Shown: positions 8,590 through 18,621 of the stretch, in pieces
How the letters are laid out: every line of letters starts with the position of its first letter
How positions within the stretch are numbered: position 1 is the first letter of the stretch
IMG/VR virus record: IMGVR_UViG_2778261175_000004
DNA length: 28,329 nt
Origin: a virus
Lineage: Duplodnaviria > Heunggongvirae > Uroviricota > Caudoviricetes
Reading direction: 5' to 3' (one strand)
The notes under the pieces: generated by a model
Told to the model about the DNA's origin: nothing
The model's database searches: none
What the model saw: the letters and a program-made list of their open reading frames with translations, nothing else
Translations under genes and position numbers: made by a program

Positions 8590-8883
8590 ATGAAAAAAAT
8601 GTTGTTTTCTGCCGCTCTGGCAATGCTTATTACAGGATGTGCTCAACAGACGTTTACTGTTGGAAACAAACCGACAGCAGTAACACCAAAGGAAACCATC
8701 ACCCATCATTTCTTCGTTTCGGGAATTGGACAGGAGAAAACTGTTGATGCAGCCAAAATTTGTGGCGGCGCAGAAAATGTTGTTAAAACAGAAACCCAGC
8801 AAACATTCGTAAATGGATTTCTCGGTTTTATTACTTTAGGCATTTATACTCCGCTGGAAGCGCGTGTGTATTGCTCACAATAA
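8590..8883 (+). CDS. bor: Bor lipoprotein (serum-resistance outer-membrane lipoprotein)
   Basis: From the Met at 8590: MKKMLFSAALAMLITGCAQQTFTV...LEARVYCSQ, 97 aa with lipobox LITGC; matches recalled lambda Bor / DLP12 BorD. Oriented opposite to the late genes, as in lambda. Confidence 0.9.
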   Translation: MKKMLFSAALAMLITGCAQQTFTVGNKPTAVTPKETITHHFFVSGIGQEKTVDAAKICGGAENVVKTETQQTFVNGFLGFITLGIYTPLEARVYCSQ

Positions 8884-9376: not shown

Positions 9377-9870
9377 TGCTGACCCCACAAACAGATTTCA
9401 CGCTCAATCTCACGACGAGTCATGAGACCTTTCCATTGCTTACCGCCAGCATATGTCCAGCGACGTAGCTGATCACATGCGCCTTTGATATCGCCCTGGT
9501 TTATTTTGCGAAGAAGCGTCGATGTTCTGAAATTGCCAGCACCCACGTTGTAAACGAATGAGTAAAGAGCGCCGCGCGTTGTTTCCGGTATATCGACTTT
9601 GATGTACGGGTTAATTTGTCTGGCGACAGTGGCAAGGTCTTTATTCAAGAGTGCTTTGCATTCTGCTTTGGTATACGTTTTACCGAGCATGATGTCTTTT
9701 CCTGTATGCCCGTGACATACAGTCCATACACCAACAATATCTTTGTATGGTATGTAGCTGACACCCTCCAGACCATCGTTACCACTTGAGCCAGTGATTA
9801 ACACTGATGCTATAGCAATTGCTCCGCCACCAATAGCAGCAGCAACGGCTTTTCGTAATGATGGAGGCAT
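9373..9870 (-). CDS. R: SAR (signal-anchor-release) endolysin, phage 21 R / DLP12 RrrD type lysozyme
   Basis: 165 aa, [57 protein letters not shown]...; N-terminal Gly/Ala-rich SAR domain; matches recalled RrrD. Confidence 0.9.
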
Positions 9871-10085
9871 TATTCACCTCTCGCAGCCTTGCGCTTATCT
9901 TCTTTAATCTTGAAATAAAGGTTTGTCAGGTACGTCAGCAAGCCAAATACCAAGCTACCCAGCACACCTATTGCTGCCCACTGTGAGGGCGTGACTTTAT
10001 CGAGCAGCTGTAAAAACCAGTAGCCAGCACTGCCTGCGGAGGTGCCGTAGGCAATGCCCGTTGTTAACTTATCCATGGATTTCAT
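9870..10085 (-). CDS. S: Pinholin, S21 / EssD type, with dual-start motif
   Basis: 71 aa, [31 protein letters not shown]...[13 protein letters not shown]; Met1 and Met4 give the holin/antiholin dual start; matches recalled S21/EssD. Confidence 0.9.
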
Positions 10086-10180
10086 AGCCTCACCTCCGCA
10101 AATAACGGATGGTGTACACGGTTCGGAACGAAGAGGAAAGGTATAGAAGTTACATTAGCGTAAGGCTTGAACATCTATTC

Positions 10181-10211
10181 AAAAAGAAAAACGCCAGCGA
10201 TTATTCTGGCG
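10181..10211 (-). terminator. Putative rho-independent terminator downstream of the AraC-family gene, upstream of the holin
   Basis: On the minus strand: CGCCAG-AATAATCG-CTGGCG followed by TTTTTCTTTTT (forward 10192-10211 stem-loop, A-run 10181-10191). Confidence 0.45.
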
Positions 10212-10273
10212 TAGCTGAAAGCATCATACAATTATCAAATACGAAAATTACAAAATCATTAAAACGCATCACG

Positions 10274-11005
10274 TTACATCATGTCTTTTTCTAAAAAAAG
10301 TCTTGATGAATATTGATGGGGAGGAACACCAAAATATCTTCTGAAAACACTCACAAAATATGACGTGTTTTCATAACCGCATATCTCAGCAACTTTTCCA
10401 ACAGAATATAAATTGTAGCTTAATAACCTTTCCGCCATCACCATTCGCTCTTCAAGAATTAACTTACTAAATGATAAGCCTTCGTGCTTTAATTTTCTTT
10501 TTAACAGACTTTCACTCAGATACAGTCTTGAAGATATATCACAAAGTCTCCATGCTGCAGATATATCCGTGTGAATAATAGCCTTAACTTTACTTCCTAA
10601 ACTATTAAGACATCCAAATAAAAAACTTTGCACTATTTTCTCTGAAGATAAGATAGCAAGACATGCAAGTGATATTTGATTTCTAACAAAATCCACAGTT
10701 CTGCCATCACAATTCAAGCATGCAATCAAGTTCTTTAACAATGAAAAATCTTCACATTCCACCATCAAGTATGCCGGATAAAACCTTCTTACAGAAAAAG
10801 GTGAGAGTGTGTTGCTTTTAAAGAAATCATTAACTGTTTTCTCTTCAACATCTACGATCATTACATGATCTATATTTGATGAAAAAAAATCTTTTAAATT
10901 GTAATCAATGAGAACAGCACTTCCTTTTTTAAACAAAATATCTTCTTTACCAATTCGGACATCAAACGAGTTCAACACCAAAATGATAGAACATATGTAT
11001 GGCAT
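10274..11005 (-). CDS. AraC-family transcriptional regulator (AppY-like), AT-rich cargo gene
   Basis: C-terminal AraC helix-turn-helix region (...KVAEICGYENTSYFVSVFRRYFGVPPHQY). N-terminus MPYICSIILVLNSFDV resembles recalled AppY MDYVCSVVFICQSFDL. ATG at 11005 has an AGGTGG ribosome-binding site; the track ORF begins 3 codons upstream at a GTG. Low GC relative to flanking phage genes. Confidence 0.8.
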   Translation of the reverse strand: MPYICSIILVLNSFDVRIGKEDILFKKGSAVLIDYNLKDFFSSNIDHVMIVDVEEKTVNDFFKSNTLSPFSVRRFYPAYLMVECEDFSLLKNLIACLNCDGRTVDFVRNQISLACLAILSSEKIVQSFLFGCLNSLGSKVKAIIHTDISAAWRLCDISSRLYLSESLLKRKLKHEGLSFSKLILEERMVMAERLLSYNLYSVGKVAEICGYENTSYFVSVFRRYFGVPPHQYSSRLFLEKDMM

Positions 11006-11356
11006 ATTATCCACCTGATATCATTGGGGTTACACCAGGTAAGTATAGGTGGAAAATCAATATTCGCCAGTTCAACAATAAGGAAAATCTCATTGCATCA
11101 CAAGTATAAAATTATGTATTTAACTCACAAAGACAAATTATTAAACCAATCTGTTATATTATATATAGCTGCGTGGAATCATAATATTATATATTTTGAC
11201 TGGCATGTTTACCAACTTTAAGTTGCATCTCAATGGTTTCTTCAGCGTAAACAGAGTTTTTATACAAACTGACACTCTGGGTATCATAGTGTAGTTTTTA
11301 CGATTGTAAATATCCTGCATGCAGGAACTCATCCTTTTGGATGATATCGCATACAA

Positions 11357-12316
11357 TTAATTTACCATCAGTCTTAGAGCCAGTTCGTCCGGATAGGGAT
11401 CGAAGTAATTCTGTGTAAGCAAGTAATCATTAGGATACTCACCCAGATAATGCTTCAGCAGAGTCAACGGCGCAAGAAGAGGTAATGTGCCAGAACGATA
11501 GTTAAGTATAACCTCGCTCAACTCTTTACGCTGGCGTGTACTTAAGTAGTTACTAAAATACCCCTGTATATGCATCAGCACATTCGTGTGATTTTTACGT
11601 GATGCAGGTTTTCTGAGAATCGCCATCAGCTTATCACGATACACCTCAAAGTATGATTCAAGGTCCGCCCACTCGTGTATTGCAGCCACAAATGGTCCCA
11701 TATCTTTATAGCCTGCCTGACTATGCGCCAACAACTGAAGCTTATAACGACTATGAAAAGCTAATAACTCTCTTCTTGATAATTTCTCCTTGTAAAGGTG
11801 ATTGAGCTCATGCAAAGCAAAAACTCTTTCAACAAAATTCTCACGAAGCACTGGATCATGTAATCGCCCATCCTCTTCAACCGGTAGCCAGGAAAACTTT
11901 TCCATCAAAGTGCTCGTAAATAGTCCCACTCCATCTTTACGACCTCGATTACCATTTTCATCATAGACACGCACGCGCTCCATGCCACAGCTGGGAGATT
12001 TAGCACAAACCACAAACCCCGATACATCCTTTAATTTGTCCATATAAGAACGACTAAACTCTGTCATTCTCTCTGTCACATCCTCATTCTGGTCGTGGCT
12101 GAAACACATCCGTATATTTCCTTGCGTCGAGCGCACAAGACGTAGAGCAGGACGCGGAACTGGCAGCCCTATAGCCATTTCCGGACATACTGGTCTGAAT
12201 GTTACCCATTCCACTAATTTGTCCATTAAAAAGTCAGCTCTTTTGTGACCACCATCAAAACGAACAGCAGAGCCGGCCAAACAACCGCTGATTCCAATCA
12301 CAGGTTTTTTTATCAT
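11357..12316 (-). CDS. TudS/RudS-like thio-nucleobase desulfidase: DUF523 [4Fe-4S] domain fused to DUF1722
   Basis: 319 aa. N-terminus MIKKPVIGISGCLAGSAVRFDGGHKR with further Cys in PVCPEM and AKSPSCGM fits the recalled DUF523 (TudS) cluster-binding pattern. The C-terminal half (about 170-319) fits the DUF1722 size and position seen in RudS-type fusions. Strong GGGGGAGA ribosome-binding site. Domain assignment is from memory, not a profile search. Confidence 0.65.
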   Translation of the reverse strand: MIKKPVIGISGCLAGSAVRFDGGHKRADFLMDKLVEWVTFRPVCPEMAIGLPVPRPALRLVRSTQGNIRMCFSHDQNEDVTERMTEFSRSYMDKLKDVSGFVVCAKSPSCGMERVRVYDENGNRGRKDGVGLFTSTLMEKFSWLPVEEDGRLHDPVLRENFVERVFALHELNHLYKEKLSRRELLAFHSRYKLQLLAHSQAGYKDMGPFVAAIHEWADLESYFEVYRDKLMAILRKPASRKNHTNVLMHIQGYFSNYLSTRQRKELSEVILNYRSGTLPLLAPLTLLKHYLGEYPNDYLLTQNYFDPYPDELALRLMVN

Positions 12317-12508
12317 ATTCTCCCCCTTGACTAATTCATTAACACATAAACTGTGTAGTGCACGGAATAAATTGCCTTTCTGGCGTCATCACTGACAATT
12401 TTTCTGTTATAGACTATTCCTAATATAGTATGAAAGTTCTTTAAGTGATCGGTCGTAATCATCTATCTTTCATACTTACTCTCAACTATCAAAAGTACAG
12501 GATTTATT

Positions 12509-13033
12509 ATGAAGTTATGGCCTGTGTTGACTGGCATTGCACTCTCTTTCACTCTTATAGCATGTAAGGCCCCGACACCACCTAAAGGTGTGCAGCCGAT
12601 TACAAATTTTGACGCCAACCGCTACCTCGGAAAATGGTATGAAATAGCTCGCCTCGAGAACCGGTTCGAACGTGGTCTGGAACAGGTCAGCGCTACCTAT
12701 GGAAAACGGAACGACGGAGGGATTCGTGTACTTAACCGTGGATACGATCCAACGAAAAATAAATGGAGCGAGAGCGAAGGTAAAGCATACTTTACTGGAG
12801 ATACTAAAACTGCAGCGTTGAAGGTTTCGTTTTTTGGCCCCTTCTATGGTGGCTATAATGTAATCAAACTGGATGATGAGTATAAGTATGCTCTTGTCAG
12901 TGGTCCGAACAGAGAATACCTATGGATTCTGGCAAGGACCCCAACTATTCCAGATAAAGTAAAAGCAGACTATGTGCGAACCGCTCAAAAGTTGGGATTC
13001 AATGTCAATGAATTATTATGGGTTAAACAATAA
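12509..13033 (+). CDS. Bacterial lipocalin Blc-type outer-membrane lipoprotein (divergent homolog)
   Basis: 174 aa with lipobox FTLIAC. Blocks NFDANRYLGKWYEIARLENRFERGLE, SEGKAYFTG, AALKVSFFGPFYGGYNVI and YLWILARTPTI closely parallel recalled E. coli Blc, but with many substitutions (roughly 60-65 percent identity by eye). Confidence 0.85.
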   Translation: MKLWPVLTGIALSFTLIACKAPTPPKGVQPITNFDANRYLGKWYEIARLENRFERGLEQVSATYGKRNDGGIRVLNRGYDPTKNKWSESEGKAYFTGDTKTAALKVSFFGPFYGGYNVIKLDDEYKYALVSGPNREYLWILARTPTIPDKVKADYVRTAQKLGFNVNELLWVKQ

Positions 13034-13061
13034 AATCCCTACCCGAAATAATACTTATTAG

Positions 13062-13088
13062 AAAAAAACCAGCCTTTGGGGAGGCTGG
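13062..13088 (-). terminator. Putative late-leader terminator (tR'-like), also placed to terminate the convergent blc-like transcript
   Basis: Stem CCAGCCT / AGGCTGG (13069-13075 / 13082-13088) with loop TTGGGG; on the minus strand it is followed by a T7 run (forward A7 at 13062-13068). Lies about 100-125 nt downstream of the Q stop, as expected for the lambda-type 6S leader transcript. Confidence 0.5.
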
Positions 13089-13188
13089 CTAAATCAGGAA
13101 ACAAGCTGTTATATGATAATAACTACGTTGCGATTCCAACATTTAAAATGTTAGACTAATGAGAATCAGACAGCAACTTTTCCTTTAA

Positions 13189-13566
13189 TTATTTCGAACA
13201 ATCAGCATCCATCTCCAATCGGAGATCCAACACCATCAGCATACCCTCCACTACGCCCTCAGCTTTCTGGAGCATCCTGCCAACCCAACAATCAGATCGC
13301 CCATGCTTACGTGCAAGCGCCATAAAAGTCATGCCGCCGACATAATAGTCCACCAATAAATCATGCAAATCGCTGTTGTTCTTTTTCAGACGGGCCATGC
13401 ACCCGCAAATGATCATCGCGTCATCGTCACAACATTGCGGGCGAGATTTTACTTTTGAAGGAATTAATCCCTTAAAACCGGCGGCAATGGACGACCAGGT
13501 CACATCTTCATGATTATTAGCCGCCCACGCTCCCCAACGCTCAAGAACCATCTGAATATCACGCAT
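13189..13566 (-). CDS. Q: Late-gene antiterminator Q (QuuD-like)
   Basis: From the Met at 13566: [60 protein letters not shown]...; Cys-rich Zn motif; matches recalled DLP12 QuuD over most of its length. Confidence 0.8.
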
Positions 13567-13648
13567 CAACTTACTCCACAAAACTCAGACCAGAACGCCA
13601 ATTACAAGCAAAAATCAACAAAACAGTATTAGTTGATTGTTATCTCTG

Positions 13649-15271: not shown

Positions 15272-16069
15272 TTACTCTCTGGAAGCTTTTCTTATCTCTC
15301 TTGGTGTTATATTAAAACGATTATGAAATCTTTCAGTAAAACGAGAAGGACACTTATAACCATTTTCTCTGGCAATCTCGCTTATAGGTTTTACCGTCGT
15401 TTGTATAGCAGACAACGCATTATTTAACCTCACATCGTCCAGTATACTTTGGAAACTTACCCCCTCGCTTGCTAGACGGCGATGTAATGTAGAAACAGAA
15501 ATGTAGAGATATCGAGCAACCTTGTTTGCTGTCCATTTTGTGCCGGGTTCGGATAGCAGCAGGTTATAACAACGACTTATCAATGATTGTTTACTATATG
15601 ATAAAAGTAAATGATTAACATGATTCACTCCTAACGAAAGTAGAACGCCCATTGCTAAGTGCTCCTGAATTTTAGTTGAGAAGCCTCGGGAAACAGATGT
15701 TTTTAGTTGCTCCCAACAATATATTAACTCAGGATTCTGAGGTAAAAAGAAACTTGTTTTGTTACGTATTTGATCAGTTACCGTATAAAGTTTTTGGAAA
15801 CTCTCAATTAAATCAATGGGTAAGTAAAGCATTTCTGCAAGATAAAGCCCTGCTTCAGGATAATTCTCAATATAAAATTCATAACCACAAGGAAATAATA
15901 TTATTTGATTATTATCAACAGTTAAAGTATGCGTCTCCCAATTGATAACTTTCTTTCCCTGACGGATACGACACAAAGCTGGCATAAGAGGCTTAACCCT
16001 ATGAATCTCATGATGTTTATGCATCCGTATTTCTTCGATCTTTAAGTTAGTCTTACCTCTTGCCAGCAT
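15272..16069 (-). CDS. ybcM: AraC-family transcriptional regulator YbcM-like
   Basis: 265 aa; C-terminal AraC helix-turn-helix (...[42 protein letters not shown]...). Matches DLP12 YbcM in position and length. Confidence 0.8.
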
Positions 16070-16078
16070 ACTCTCACC

Positions 16079-16630
16079 CTACTTTATCTCATAAACTGGT
16101 GTTATCTCAGCGGTTGCGATTTTATTAGCATTAAGCATATAACCAACTAACGCTCCGCTGGAGTTAGAATCTACAGGAATCTTTTCAGTTTTTAGAGCCC
16201 ATACTTTAAACTGGTAATGATGTGGTTTATCTCCTTTAGGAGGACACGCGCCACCAAACCCAGCATAGCCAAAATCATTTCGGCCTTGAACAGCACCAGT
16301 CGGCAGTTTTGTTCCATCACGTCTCCCTGCATCAACGGGCAAATATGTTATTGTTGCTGGAATATTAACAACAGTCCAATGCCACCAACCACTGCCTGTA
16401 GGTGCATCTGGATCATATACAGTTACGGCAAAGCTTTTGGTACCTTCAGGAACACCAGACCAGGTTAATGAGGGCGATGTATTACCACCTTCACACCCAA
16501 ATCCAGAAAAGACATGAGACGTTGTAAGTTGCTCTCCTGTTTTTATTTCATTACTAGTGACCTGAAATGCTGCAGCCTGCGCAGAAAATGTTATGAATGC
16601 CAATACAGTTGAAACGATAAGTGTTTTCAT
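16079..16630 (-). CDS. ybcL: Periplasmic phosphatidylethanolamine-binding protein (PEBP / Raf kinase inhibitor-like) YbcL-like
   Basis: 183 aa with signal peptide MKTLIVSTVLAFITFSAQA; PEBP motifs (...YDPDAPTGSGWWHW...HHYQFKVWAL...). Confidence 0.85.
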   Translation of the reverse strand: MKTLIVSTVLAFITFSAQAAAFQVTSNEIKTGEQLTTSHVFSGFGCEGGNTSPSLTWSGVPEGTKSFAVTVYDPDAPTGSGWWHWTVVNIPATITYLPVDAGRRDGTKLPTGAVQGRNDFGYAGFGGACPPKGDKPHHYQFKVWALKTEKIPVDSNSSGALVGYMLNANKIATAEITPVYEIK

Positions 16631-16846
16631 AAAAACCTCTTTGTTATGACCTATCGTTATTTTATTTGATATTCCTTTATCTCATTATGCATAAAGGCGC
16701 AATTTTTATGCAAAAGCAATCACAATTGTACCCCCAACCCAATTATTTGCCACAATATACACAAAGCACATTGATACTATCTAAAAACTCTGCTTTATTA
16801 TTAGTAATACCTACGAAAGTCGGTGTTATTTTTTAACCTATCATTC

Positions 16847-16896
16847 AAAATACGTGACATACACCATTTTGCTCATAATAATTTGTCACGTATTTT
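16847..16896. repeat. Perfect 13-bp inverted repeat AAAATACGTGACA / TGTCACGTATTTT with a 24-bp spacer, in the ybcK-ybcL intergenic region
   Basis: Direct reading: 16847-16859 and 16884-16896 are exact reverse complements. Confidence 0.9.
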
Positions 16897-17094
16897 CAGT
16901 ATTTGAATCTGCGACCAAGAGTTCTCACCTGACAAATGATTAAGATTGTATAGCTCATTTACTACCCCAATACAGCCGTACAAAACTCGCTTGTGGGAGC
17001 AAACAAAGTAATTACCCATTAAGTTTCGTCAAAGATAATTAATTCTGTCTTGCACTTTATCACCATAGCATAACTTAAAATCCGAGATCATTAT

Positions 17095-18621
17095 TTAGAA
17101 ATAAATCTCACCATCAACCATATATTTGAGAGCACTTATCGCCTGCTGGGCGGATATTACTTTCATTAAAGGATAGTGTTTAAAAACAATGCCATTCATA
17201 AAATAAATATCACAGGTTTTATTATCCGTATTAATTATGATTTTTTCGAATGTTTTATAGGCAAGTGTACGGCATAACTCTCGTCCATTTTTACTGGTTA
17301 AGTCAATAGCATAAAAATCACTGAATGAATTTACACCTTTACTCTTCAAAGTTTTCAATGATACCGAAGCCCTTCGTAATTCCTTATCTAATAGTCTTAT
17401 TTTCTCTGCTATAGCGGTAACTTCAGGCGCGACAGACAATGCAACGATTAAATTATTAATTTTCATCTGAAGCTCAATAATTTTTAACTCTAAAGTTTCA
17501 TTAGCATCTTTCTTGTTTTCAACTGGTTGAATTTTGCTACAATTAAAAAGCAATTCATTAATGATATTATAATCAACCAAATCTCTTTTTATTGATGGCC
17601 TGTCACATCGATGTAATCTTCTCATCGGACAAACATAATAGCCATGCAAACTTCCAGATACCGCATGAACAATCATGGTATTACCACAAGCCTCACACTT
17701 CATAACTGTTCGAAGTAGATTTATTAGCATAGGATTCTTGCTACTATTGCTAATACCAAAAGGTGCCAACCGAATTTCCTGTACAGCGTAAAACAAATCA
17801 TCTGATATGACTCTGGGATAATAGCCAGCGATTTCACTTATCCCTTTCCCTCTTGCACGATATGAAGGTACGCATATACCTATCAGAGCTTTATTCGCTA
17901 ATAATTTTTCAATTACAGAAGGTCCCCATGCACTTTCTTTTCCTGAGAAATTCTTTACAGCATGATCATTTAAATACTTGGCTATTGCATTCAATGAGCG
18001 CCTTTCCATCCTGAGTTTAAAAATTAGCTCAATAGTTTTCACCCTGTCGGGGTCTGGAACAAAAGCCGTTCTTTTGTCATCTAAGGAGAGCCATCTCGGA
18101 CAAGACGCCGTCATAATCGTACCTGATTCCAGTGCATCCTGCCGTTTTTTCTTCCATGATAATTTAACCCGACTTGACTTTATCTCGCTTTCTTCATTTG
18201 CCCTTTGTGCTATAAGTATGGCTTTTATTAATGAATATGGCTCATTCAAAGAGTCAATATTATAGACTGTATTGTCGCAAAGAGTTATAACATCAATACC
18301 GTGATTCAAAATCAATTTCAGACGTTCAATCGCTTCACCGACTTTTTCTCTTGAAAGTCTGTCCAGACTTTCAACTAACAATGTAGTTCCTGGCAATATA
18401 TAACCATGCTCTATAGCATCTAAAAATTCCGAAAAAGCTCCTGATTGTGCATGCTTTCCTTTGAATGCACTTAATCCTAAATCTTCATATGTTATGGTAT
18501 CAAGATAATAATCACTATTTACCTTTAACCATTCAGCAATAAGTCTTCTCTGTCGGTTTAATGAGTCACCAGACATCTGACCTGGTGATGAAAATCGCAT
18601 ATATGCTATGGCTTTTTTCAT
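17095..18621 (-). CDS. ybcK: Large serine recombinase (resolvase/invertase-type N-terminal catalytic domain plus large C-terminal domain), YbcK-like
   Basis: 508 aa. N-terminus MKKAIAYMRFSSPGQMSGDSLNRQRR... has the serine-recombinase catalytic motif (Y-x-R-x-S-S). C-terminal Cys cluster (CEACGNTMIVH...YYVCPMRRLHRC) is typical of large serine recombinases. Confidence 0.85.
   Translation of the reverse strand: MKKAIAYMRFSSPGQMSGDSLNRQRRLIAEWLKVNSDYYLDTITYEDLGLSAFKGKHAQSGAFSEFLDAIEHGYILPGTTLLVESLDRLSREKVGEAIERLKLILNHGIDVITLCDNTVYNIDSLNEPYSLIKAILIAQRANEESEIKSSRVKLSWKKKRQDALESGTIMTASCPRWLSLDDKRTAFVPDPDRVKTIELIFKLRMERRSLNAIAKYLNDHAVKNFSGKESAWGPSVIEKLLANKALIGICVPSYRARGKGISEIAGYYPRVISDDLFYAVQEIRLAPFGISNSSKNPMLINLLRTVMKCEACGNTMIVHAVSGSLHGYYVCPMRRLHRCDRPSIKRDLVDYNIINELLFNCSKIQPVENKKDANETLELKIIELQMKINNLIVALSVAPEVTAIAEKIRLLDKELRRASVSLKTLKSKGVNSFSDFYAIDLTSKNGRELCRTLAYKTFEKIIINTDNKTCDIYFMNGIVFKHYPLMKVISAQQAISALKYMVDGEIYF

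Follow-up and report, generated by a model that had tools for sequence, protein, structure and literature searches.

Several transcription factors of the AraC family that reside on prophages, namely AppY, PatE and PsrA/PsrB, rewire acid resistance, the stability of RpoS and type III secretion in Escherichia coli. PsrA and PsrB are about 90% identical to each other and are carried by effector-encoding prophages. Lambdoid phages also bear various morons in their late region, such as stx in the Stx phages (where it occupies the slot between Q and S), nmpC in DLP12, and bor/lom in lambda. With respect to their targets, PatE and PsrB activate gadE and hdeA, the PatE regulon comprises gadE, hdeAB and the enterocyte effacement locus (LEE), and psr genes are associated with type III secretion system (T3SS) effector loci and with Pch regulators (PMC10877973). 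AppY directly activates gadE and the genes of acid resistance system 2 (AR2), and also affects RpoS and biofilm (PMC10057817). Here we describe an AraC-family gene of this kind, encoding protein WP_001146309.1 (243 aa; 10274-11005, minus strand), on a stretch of 28,329 nucleotides from a tailed-phage record (IMG/VR IMGVR_UViG_2778261175_000004; this whole stretch is called the window). The window comprises the late as well as the early region of a lambdoid prophage of the DLP12 type, as judged from its list of open reading frames (ORFs), from Pfam, and from annotation by the Prokaryotic Genome Annotation Pipeline (PGAP); the genes discussed are on the minus strand unless stated otherwise.

The AraC gene occupies the cargo slot between Q and the lysis genes of this prophage, after a blc-like and a ybgA-like gene, and it is followed by a hairpin with a T-run immediately ahead of the holin gene. 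We consider it probable, from the sequence and its relatives, that these parts constitute a moron (candidate promoter or promoters, regulator gene, and predicted intrinsic terminator) whose product is a PatE-like regulator of lysogenic conversion. By analogy, this conversion likely proceeds via the acid-resistance regulon of the host, a proposal that we make with moderate confidence and favour because the relatives characterised so far all lead to the glutamate-dependent acid-resistance network. Two properties typical of morons are evident at the locus. Its composition is distinct (GC 0.32 and, at third codon positions, GC3 0.27, versus 0.48 for the window), and it is present or absent between homologous genes, K-12 DLP12 having nmpC in the slot and other phages having araC alone.

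An earlier sequence-only reading of the window had called the gene visibly AT-rich relative to its flanks, and calculation of composition and gene coordinates bears this out, with the addition that everything concerned lies on the minus strand, which that reading omitted. The coding sequence has a GC of 0.320 and a GC3 of 0.266, the lowest GC among the 19 genes scored, compared to 0.325 for the spacer upstream (11006-11356), 0.478 for the window, and 0.53 to 0.61 for the structural genes. The ORF list gives the gene as 10274-11014 with a GTG start; the true start is almost certainly the ATG at 11005, since the Shine-Dalgarno sequence AGGTGGA lies 5 nt upstream of it and includes the GTG, and since PGAP calls the same 243-aa protein (named 'helix-turn-helix domain-containing protein').

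Membership of the AraC/XylS family follows from the Pfam domains HTH_18 (PF12833; 1.1e-14, 54.9 bits against a cut-off of 33.6) and HTH_AraC (PF00165; 2.1e-11, 44.1 bits against a cut-off of 26.6), the AraC double helix-turn-helix spanning residues 161-237. In PHROGs the protein matches phrog_1450, of unknown function, over its full length. In pairwise alignments, PatE (Sakai ECs_0287) is 53.6% identical and the presumed PsrB (EDL933 OI-57, WP_000301797.1) 40%, both over the full length; they are followed by GadW (34%, full length) and AppY (31% over 237 aa, E 3e-42, aligned from residue 1). GadX shares about 40% identity in the DNA-binding domain only, and EnvY about 30% over residues 43-232, which in a multiple alignment amounts to 17% in the N-terminal and 41% in the C-terminal part. 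The best NCBIfam model is YdeO (127 bits, residues 1-234 of the protein against 1-232 of the profile), with a score well under the 348-bit equivalog cut-off. The sequence-only reading thus rightly recognised a prophage AraC regulator of the acid-resistance and virulence subgroup. Its description of the N-terminus as AppY-like (MPYICSIILV versus MDYVCSVVFI in AppY) also stands as far as the alignment goes, although PatE is much the closer relative and an N-terminus of this type, judged from the alignments, is common to the whole GadW/AppY/PatE subgroup and therefore generic. Among the regulators it cited from enterohaemorrhagic E. coli (EHEC), PatE and the presumed PsrB are indeed homologous, but GrvA is of the ToxR/OmpR type and not an AraC protein.

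The motif M-x-x-x-C-S (MxxxCS[VI]) at the N-terminus and alignability over the full length place the protein in the GadW/AppY/YdeO/PatE subgroup. An exhaustive search among 1.84 billion representatives returned only 10 representative clusters at E <= 1e-30, and the full-length subgroup is therefore small. Its AlphaFold (AF2) model, with a predicted local distance difference test score (pLDDT) of 78, consists of a beta-rich N-terminal domain, a helical linker and a double helix-turn-helix. The nearest full-length structural neighbours are CsvR, Rns and ToxT, virulence regulators of the AraC family that sense fatty acids, which share the overall fold only (template modelling score about 0.5, 18-20% identity); the modelled DNA-binding domain superposes on that of GadX at a root-mean-square deviation of 1.8 A (GadX structure 3mkl, E 2.6e-20). 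Relative to PatE, the DNA-binding domain (131-235) is 72% identical, with 11 of 12 positions the same in the first recognition-helix segment, and the N-terminal domain 38%. These comparisons make the protein a two-domain regulator within the GadW/AppY/YdeO/PatE subgroup, for which PatE paralogue is the most fitting description. We rejected orthology with PatE on account of the 53.6% identity and the different locus (a slot between Q and holin versus a tail-fibre, insertion sequence (IS) and att end). Membership of the Psr regulators was likewise dismissed, given the 40% identity to the presumed PsrB and the lack of any annotated effector, PerC or Pch gene in the PGAP annotation of the identical prophage of strain 266917_2. 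A 'PatE (CIW80_12240)' overexpressed in E. coli Nissle in a recent preprint (bioRxiv 10.1101/2025.08.01.668021) was set aside as a possible equivalent: RefSeq RS12240 is bcsZ, with GenBank tags running about 155 ahead near dinF, and CIW80_12240 is most probably a gene of the acid fitness island (gadW being RS12150) and not of a prophage, this mapping being unproven.

The 1.27-kb cassette is matched in 1086 of 5426 complete E. coli genomes (in 873 over at least 80% of its length), and the AraC coding sequence is covered to at least 80% in 996 of them (about 18%, or roughly one in six), many of which are human isolates. According to DNA identity, the coding sequences fall into allele groups of at least 99%, about 89%, about 87% and about 85%. 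In O157 genomes the match is due to patE alone, with a DNA identity of about 70% over part of the gene length. The gene also occurs on phage records, at 99% in IdasGreatGrand and, at the protein level, at 82% in the series Lambda_2G7a, Lambda_ev and 1H12. A scan of IMG/VR yielded 80 loci, nearly all of them identical or of an 86% allele, and thus contributed little further diversity. By these searches the family appears essentially confined to Escherichia. The sole match among the GTDB species representatives, a 3.2-kb contig (JARKOR010000151.1, locus L096, 98% identity) in a metagenome-assembled genome (MAG) of 'Candidatus Nanosynbacter', was discounted, an E. coli phage gene on such a contig being almost certainly a binning error.

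Gene order bears on the question of where the regulator acts. Four allele groups, on DLP12-like, Qin-like and lambda-like backbones, retain the order Q, blc, ybgA, araC, holin, and within the clade the AraC gene always stands immediately upstream of the holin gene; this constancy, together with a copy of the Q-downstream region in the AraC leader (described below), would suit a regulator that acts locally, on the ybgA-like and blc-like genes or on lysis-gene expression, instead of on host regulons. We regard such local action as unlikely, though less so than the other alternatives considered here, because two more distant alleles (L014 and L015, with 64% and 56% protein identity, respectively) sit alone, without blc and ybgA, between a Q of another family (PF03589, PF06323) and a P21-type holin, and because the K-12 DLP12 lysis cassette does without such a gene. 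Moreover, relatives of the PatE and AppY type are situated at the tail-fibre/att end of prophages, far from the lysis genes, and yet act on host genes (PMC10057817). The presumed PsrB and its homologue in an Stx2k phage also lie downstream of Q, before the tRNA, stx and lysis region. In this phage, phiSTEC1575-Stx2k (L012 4001-6835), the PsrB-like AraC gene is 92% identical to the EDL933 OI-57 gene and lies between Q and the tRNA-stx2k cluster, while an iraM-like anti-adaptor gene directly follows stx; AppY has been reported to act through iraM in K-12.

The terminator proposed by the sequence-only reading, a hairpin plus T-run about 100 nt before the holin start, was found at 10212-10181 (minus strand), 62 nt past the TAA of the AraC gene (10276-10274) and 95 nt ahead of the holin ATG (10085). 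It consists of the stem ACGCCAG/CTGGCGT at 10212-10191 (7 bp, enclosing a loop of 8 nt), followed by the tail TTTTCTTTTT, which extends to 10181 and reads UUUUCUUUUU as RNA; the centroid energy is -11.3 kcal/mol. Stem and T-run are invariant in four alleles, with one change in the loop, amid flanks that average 83% column identity, and the 56% allele has an equivalent hairpin and T-run at the same place. It is this conservation that makes the hairpin credible as a terminator, the motif count alone being at chance. As K-12 DLP12 shares only about 11 nt with the window upstream of essD, having nmpC in the slot, the hairpin is to be counted with the cargo rather than with the leader of the holin gene. 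A short stem of only about -11 kcal/mol, an interrupted T-run, a local-fold z-score of only -0.5 and the want of an obvious equivalent in the 64% allele could mean that it is ineffective as a terminator and serves as a 3' stabiliser or processing site, so that the AraC gene and the holin gene would be co-transcribed without Q. This we hold to be improbable: an invariant stem amid varying flanks, followed by a U-tract, is the canonical form of an intrinsic terminator, and in lambdoid lysis the unregulated transcription of a holin from a lysogenic promoter would be lethal. The coordinates of Q, hairpin and holin further agree with the claim that this predicted terminator is on the late path; with the AraC gene lying between Q and holin, Q-modified late transcription would have to cross it.

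The AT-rich region 11015-11356, from which the sequence-only reading thought the regulator might be expressed in the lysogen, contains two conserved sigma-70-like candidate promoters on the minus strand, in keeping with that suggestion. The distal candidate, P2 (11310-11283; TTTACA-16-TATGAT, 10/12 in the scan), is near-invariant across four alleles, against a mean column identity of 73% for the spacer. The proximal candidate, P1 (11070-11042; CTGGCG-17-TATACT, about 36 nt upstream of the ATG), was assigned from family conservation: the block TGGC...TATACTT is conserved in all six aligned family members, patE included, and its counterparts in the 56% allele and in Sakai patE read TTGGCA-18-TATACT (10/12). 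No terminator was predicted by the scan between the ybgA-like gene and the AraC gene, so that read-through from ybgA is possible as well.

The leader also holds, at about 11250-11130 (minus strand; repeat D2 in local and extended alignments), a diverged copy of the late-promoter region downstream of Q. This copy of about 120 nt matches 13188-13091, the tR'-like hairpin being missing from it; its core alignment (11174-11135 versus 13128-13091) has a score of 31, reached by none of 500 shuffles, and the conserved core reads TAT(C/A)ATATAACAG(C/A)TTG. The window and EC0885 alleles carry it, while most of it is deleted from the 2G7a and PS1 alleles (85-87%), and it is therefore not essential to the cassette. 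Judged from the alignments, the copy is perhaps a relic of an ancestral junction between Q and araC, of a kind that the 64% and 56% alleles still have, or perhaps a second element resembling a late promoter. This hairpin-less copy, and the fact that relatives come first after Q in three Q families, would fit a regulator that is more than a passive conversion gene and is deliberately wired into the late operon, in which case induction or leaky late transcription would deliver a pulse of an activator of the GadE/RpoS network. We consider such wiring doubtful; if true, it would couple the lytic decision of the phage to host stress physiology, and the rapidly diversifying N-terminal domains would supply each allele with a separate input signal.

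A further hairpin is predicted in the leader at 10990-11110 (minus strand; z = -2.2), where pairing between UUUCCACCUAUAC and AUCAGGUGGAU would mask the Shine-Dalgarno sequence together with the AUG. It was not retained as a regulatory element: the pairing (CCACCU with AGGUGG) is not conserved in the 64%, 56% or PatE clades, and its anti-Shine-Dalgarno arm sits in the P1 spacer, upstream of the P1 start, and would thus be absent from P1 transcripts. At most, and weakly, it might be relevant to longer read-through transcripts (from P2, ybgA or the late promoter). Rfam gave no match at gathering threshold in the window, and only chance-level ones at E <= 1 in 9800-13400.

The ratio of nonsynonymous to synonymous substitution rates (dN/dS) of the AraC gene is 0.22-0.27 across three allele groups, which indicates purifying selection. 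Selection appears tighter on the neighbours Q, blc, ybgA and holin (0.04-0.21), and the dN of the AraC gene is several-fold above that in most comparisons of these neighbouring genes; no other part of the module has diverged as far as the AraC gene and its leader. Comparison of loci L008, L009 and L010 revealed mosaic alleles: the identity of EC0885 to the window is 92-100% over the 5' half of the gene but 78-87% over the 3' half, while the 2G7a and PS1 alleles have the reverse pattern, which indicates recombination inside the AraC gene. In one allele group the substitutions cluster in the N-terminal domain (75% versus 91% identity). A silent, H-NS-repressed and decaying passenger that contributes nothing to the lysogen, as the very low GC typical of xenogeneically silenced DNA, the divergence of the gene and its shortened versions might suggest, is the least probable of the alternatives, in view of the purifying selection, the intact frame in hundreds of genomes and in isolated phages, and the promoter and terminator blocks conserved inside variable flanks.

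For the PatE-like regulator of lysogenic conversion that we prefer, we infer from the sequence the following scheme. In the lysogen, P1 and/or P2, as sigma-70 promoters of the cassette itself, would drive transcription of the AraC gene, perhaps supplemented by read-through from ybgA, and these transcripts would end at the hairpin 10212-10181, keeping the holin silent and the cell protected. The protein would then bind AT-rich host promoters in trans through its PatE-like double helix-turn-helix; our best guess for its targets is the glutamate-dependent acid-resistance network (gadE, hdeAB), as for PatE, PsrB and AppY. Specificity for a signal or partner may be set, allele by allele, by the faster-evolving N-terminal domain. 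Once the prophage is induced, RNA polymerase that starts downstream of Q and is modified by it would pass both the tR'-like hairpin and the cassette terminator, and would transcribe ybgA and the AraC gene before it reaches the lysis genes.

Several observations count against this scheme. An identity of 54% to PatE is no guarantee of the same targets, and the second recognition-helix segment shares only 9 of 13 positions with PatE. Shortened or disrupted copies occur in some genomes (clusters of 195 aa and 133 aa, and a match of 56% coverage). The calls of promoters and terminator rest on conservation among related sequences, motif counts being no higher than in shuffles: terminator-like sites in the region number 3 against 2.8 expected, which leaves a single motif at chance level, and no clear terminator was seen at the equivalent place in the 64% allele. 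In addition, the -35 hexamer of P1 (CTGGCG) is weak in the window allele (3/6), a search by eye for pR' and a Q-binding site gave no confident assignment, and no study of WP_001146309.1 was found in the literature.

In the direction of transcription the locus reads Q, tR'-like hairpin, blc-like gene (on the opposite strand), ybgA-like gene, spacer, AraC gene, hairpin with T-run, holin, lysozyme, Rz/Rz1, and bor/iss; strain 266917_2 has an identical stretch with the same gene assignments by PGAP. The late antiterminator Q (13189-13581, also given as 13189-13566, minus strand; PF06530, 2.5e-51; 'antiterminator Q family protein' in PGAP) is followed about 100 nt downstream by the tR'-like terminator (13090-13067, minus strand), for which the scan gave a 9-bp stem and TTTTTTT. 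The blc-like outer-membrane lipocalin (12509-13033, plus strand; PF08212; NCBIfam Blc, 316 bits, above the cut-off) is antisense to late transcription, and Q-driven transcription would collide with it. Next is the ybgA-like gene (11357-12316, minus strand; Pfam, and phrog_3275 over its full length), a fusion of DUF523/2-thiouracil desulfurase and DUF1722; this phage-borne gene of the late region has a dN/dS of about 0.1-0.2. An AT-rich spacer of 350 nt (11006-11356, minus strand) separates it from the AraC gene, and downstream of the AraC cassette the first lysis gene encodes a P21-type holin (9870-10085, minus strand; PF04971, 2.2e-35; annotated essD). Just past Rz, the gene of the bor/iss serum-survival lipoprotein (8590-8883, plus strand) is a second lysogenic-conversion gene on this prophage. 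The early region contains a second AT-rich island (15272-18621, minus strand; GC 0.35-0.42) with ybcM, ybcL and the recombinase gene ybcK, where ybcM is a further AraC-family regulator, without a characterised regulon.

Among the known systems, PatE (Z0321/ECs_0287, on CP-933H/Sp1 of E. coli O157:H7) is the closest characterised relative of the window protein. The two align over their full length, begin with the M-x-x-x-C-S N-terminus, and are encoded by AT-rich, prophage-borne genes with an upstream TTGGCA-17/18-TATACT element. They differ in that patE is located at the tail-fibre/att end of a degraded prophage, beside IS remnants, and in that their N-terminal domains are only 38% identical. 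The EDL933 OI-57 product WP_000301797.1, presumed from its position to be PsrB, is also a full-length homologue from a late region, downstream of a Q-like antiterminator, but is more distant than PatE; for PsrA (Z1789), searches of Sakai Sp6, of the initial 50 kb of Sp10 and of EDL933 CP-933N, by annotation and by tblastn, gave no AraC-like ORF. AppY belongs to the same subgroup and is carried by the same prophage lineage (DLP12 of E. coli K-12), yet is distant in sequence, and appY is found beyond the tail-fibre genes, where DLP12 ends on the right; the slot between Q and holin, which houses the AraC gene in the window, holds nmpC there. GadW, GadX and YdeO resemble the window protein (GadW at 34% over the full length, GadX at 40% and 1.8 A in the DNA-binding domain, YdeO as the best NCBIfam model), but they are chromosomal, in the acid fitness island, and not phage cargo, and the scores are far below the equivalog cut-offs. 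With the late-region morons of lambdoid phages the cassette has in common its foreign composition, its predicted own promoter and terminator, and its place between Q and the lysis genes, and like them it could be transcribed independently as well as by Q-modified polymerase; unlike stx, nmpC and bor/lom, its cargo is a transcription factor and not a toxin or surface protein. The kind of regulator is thus well known, and WP_001146309.1 is a new, widespread and as yet uncharacterised member of the PatE/Psr/AppY/GadW kind, which could, as a common and transferable factor, modify gastric-acid survival beyond EHEC.

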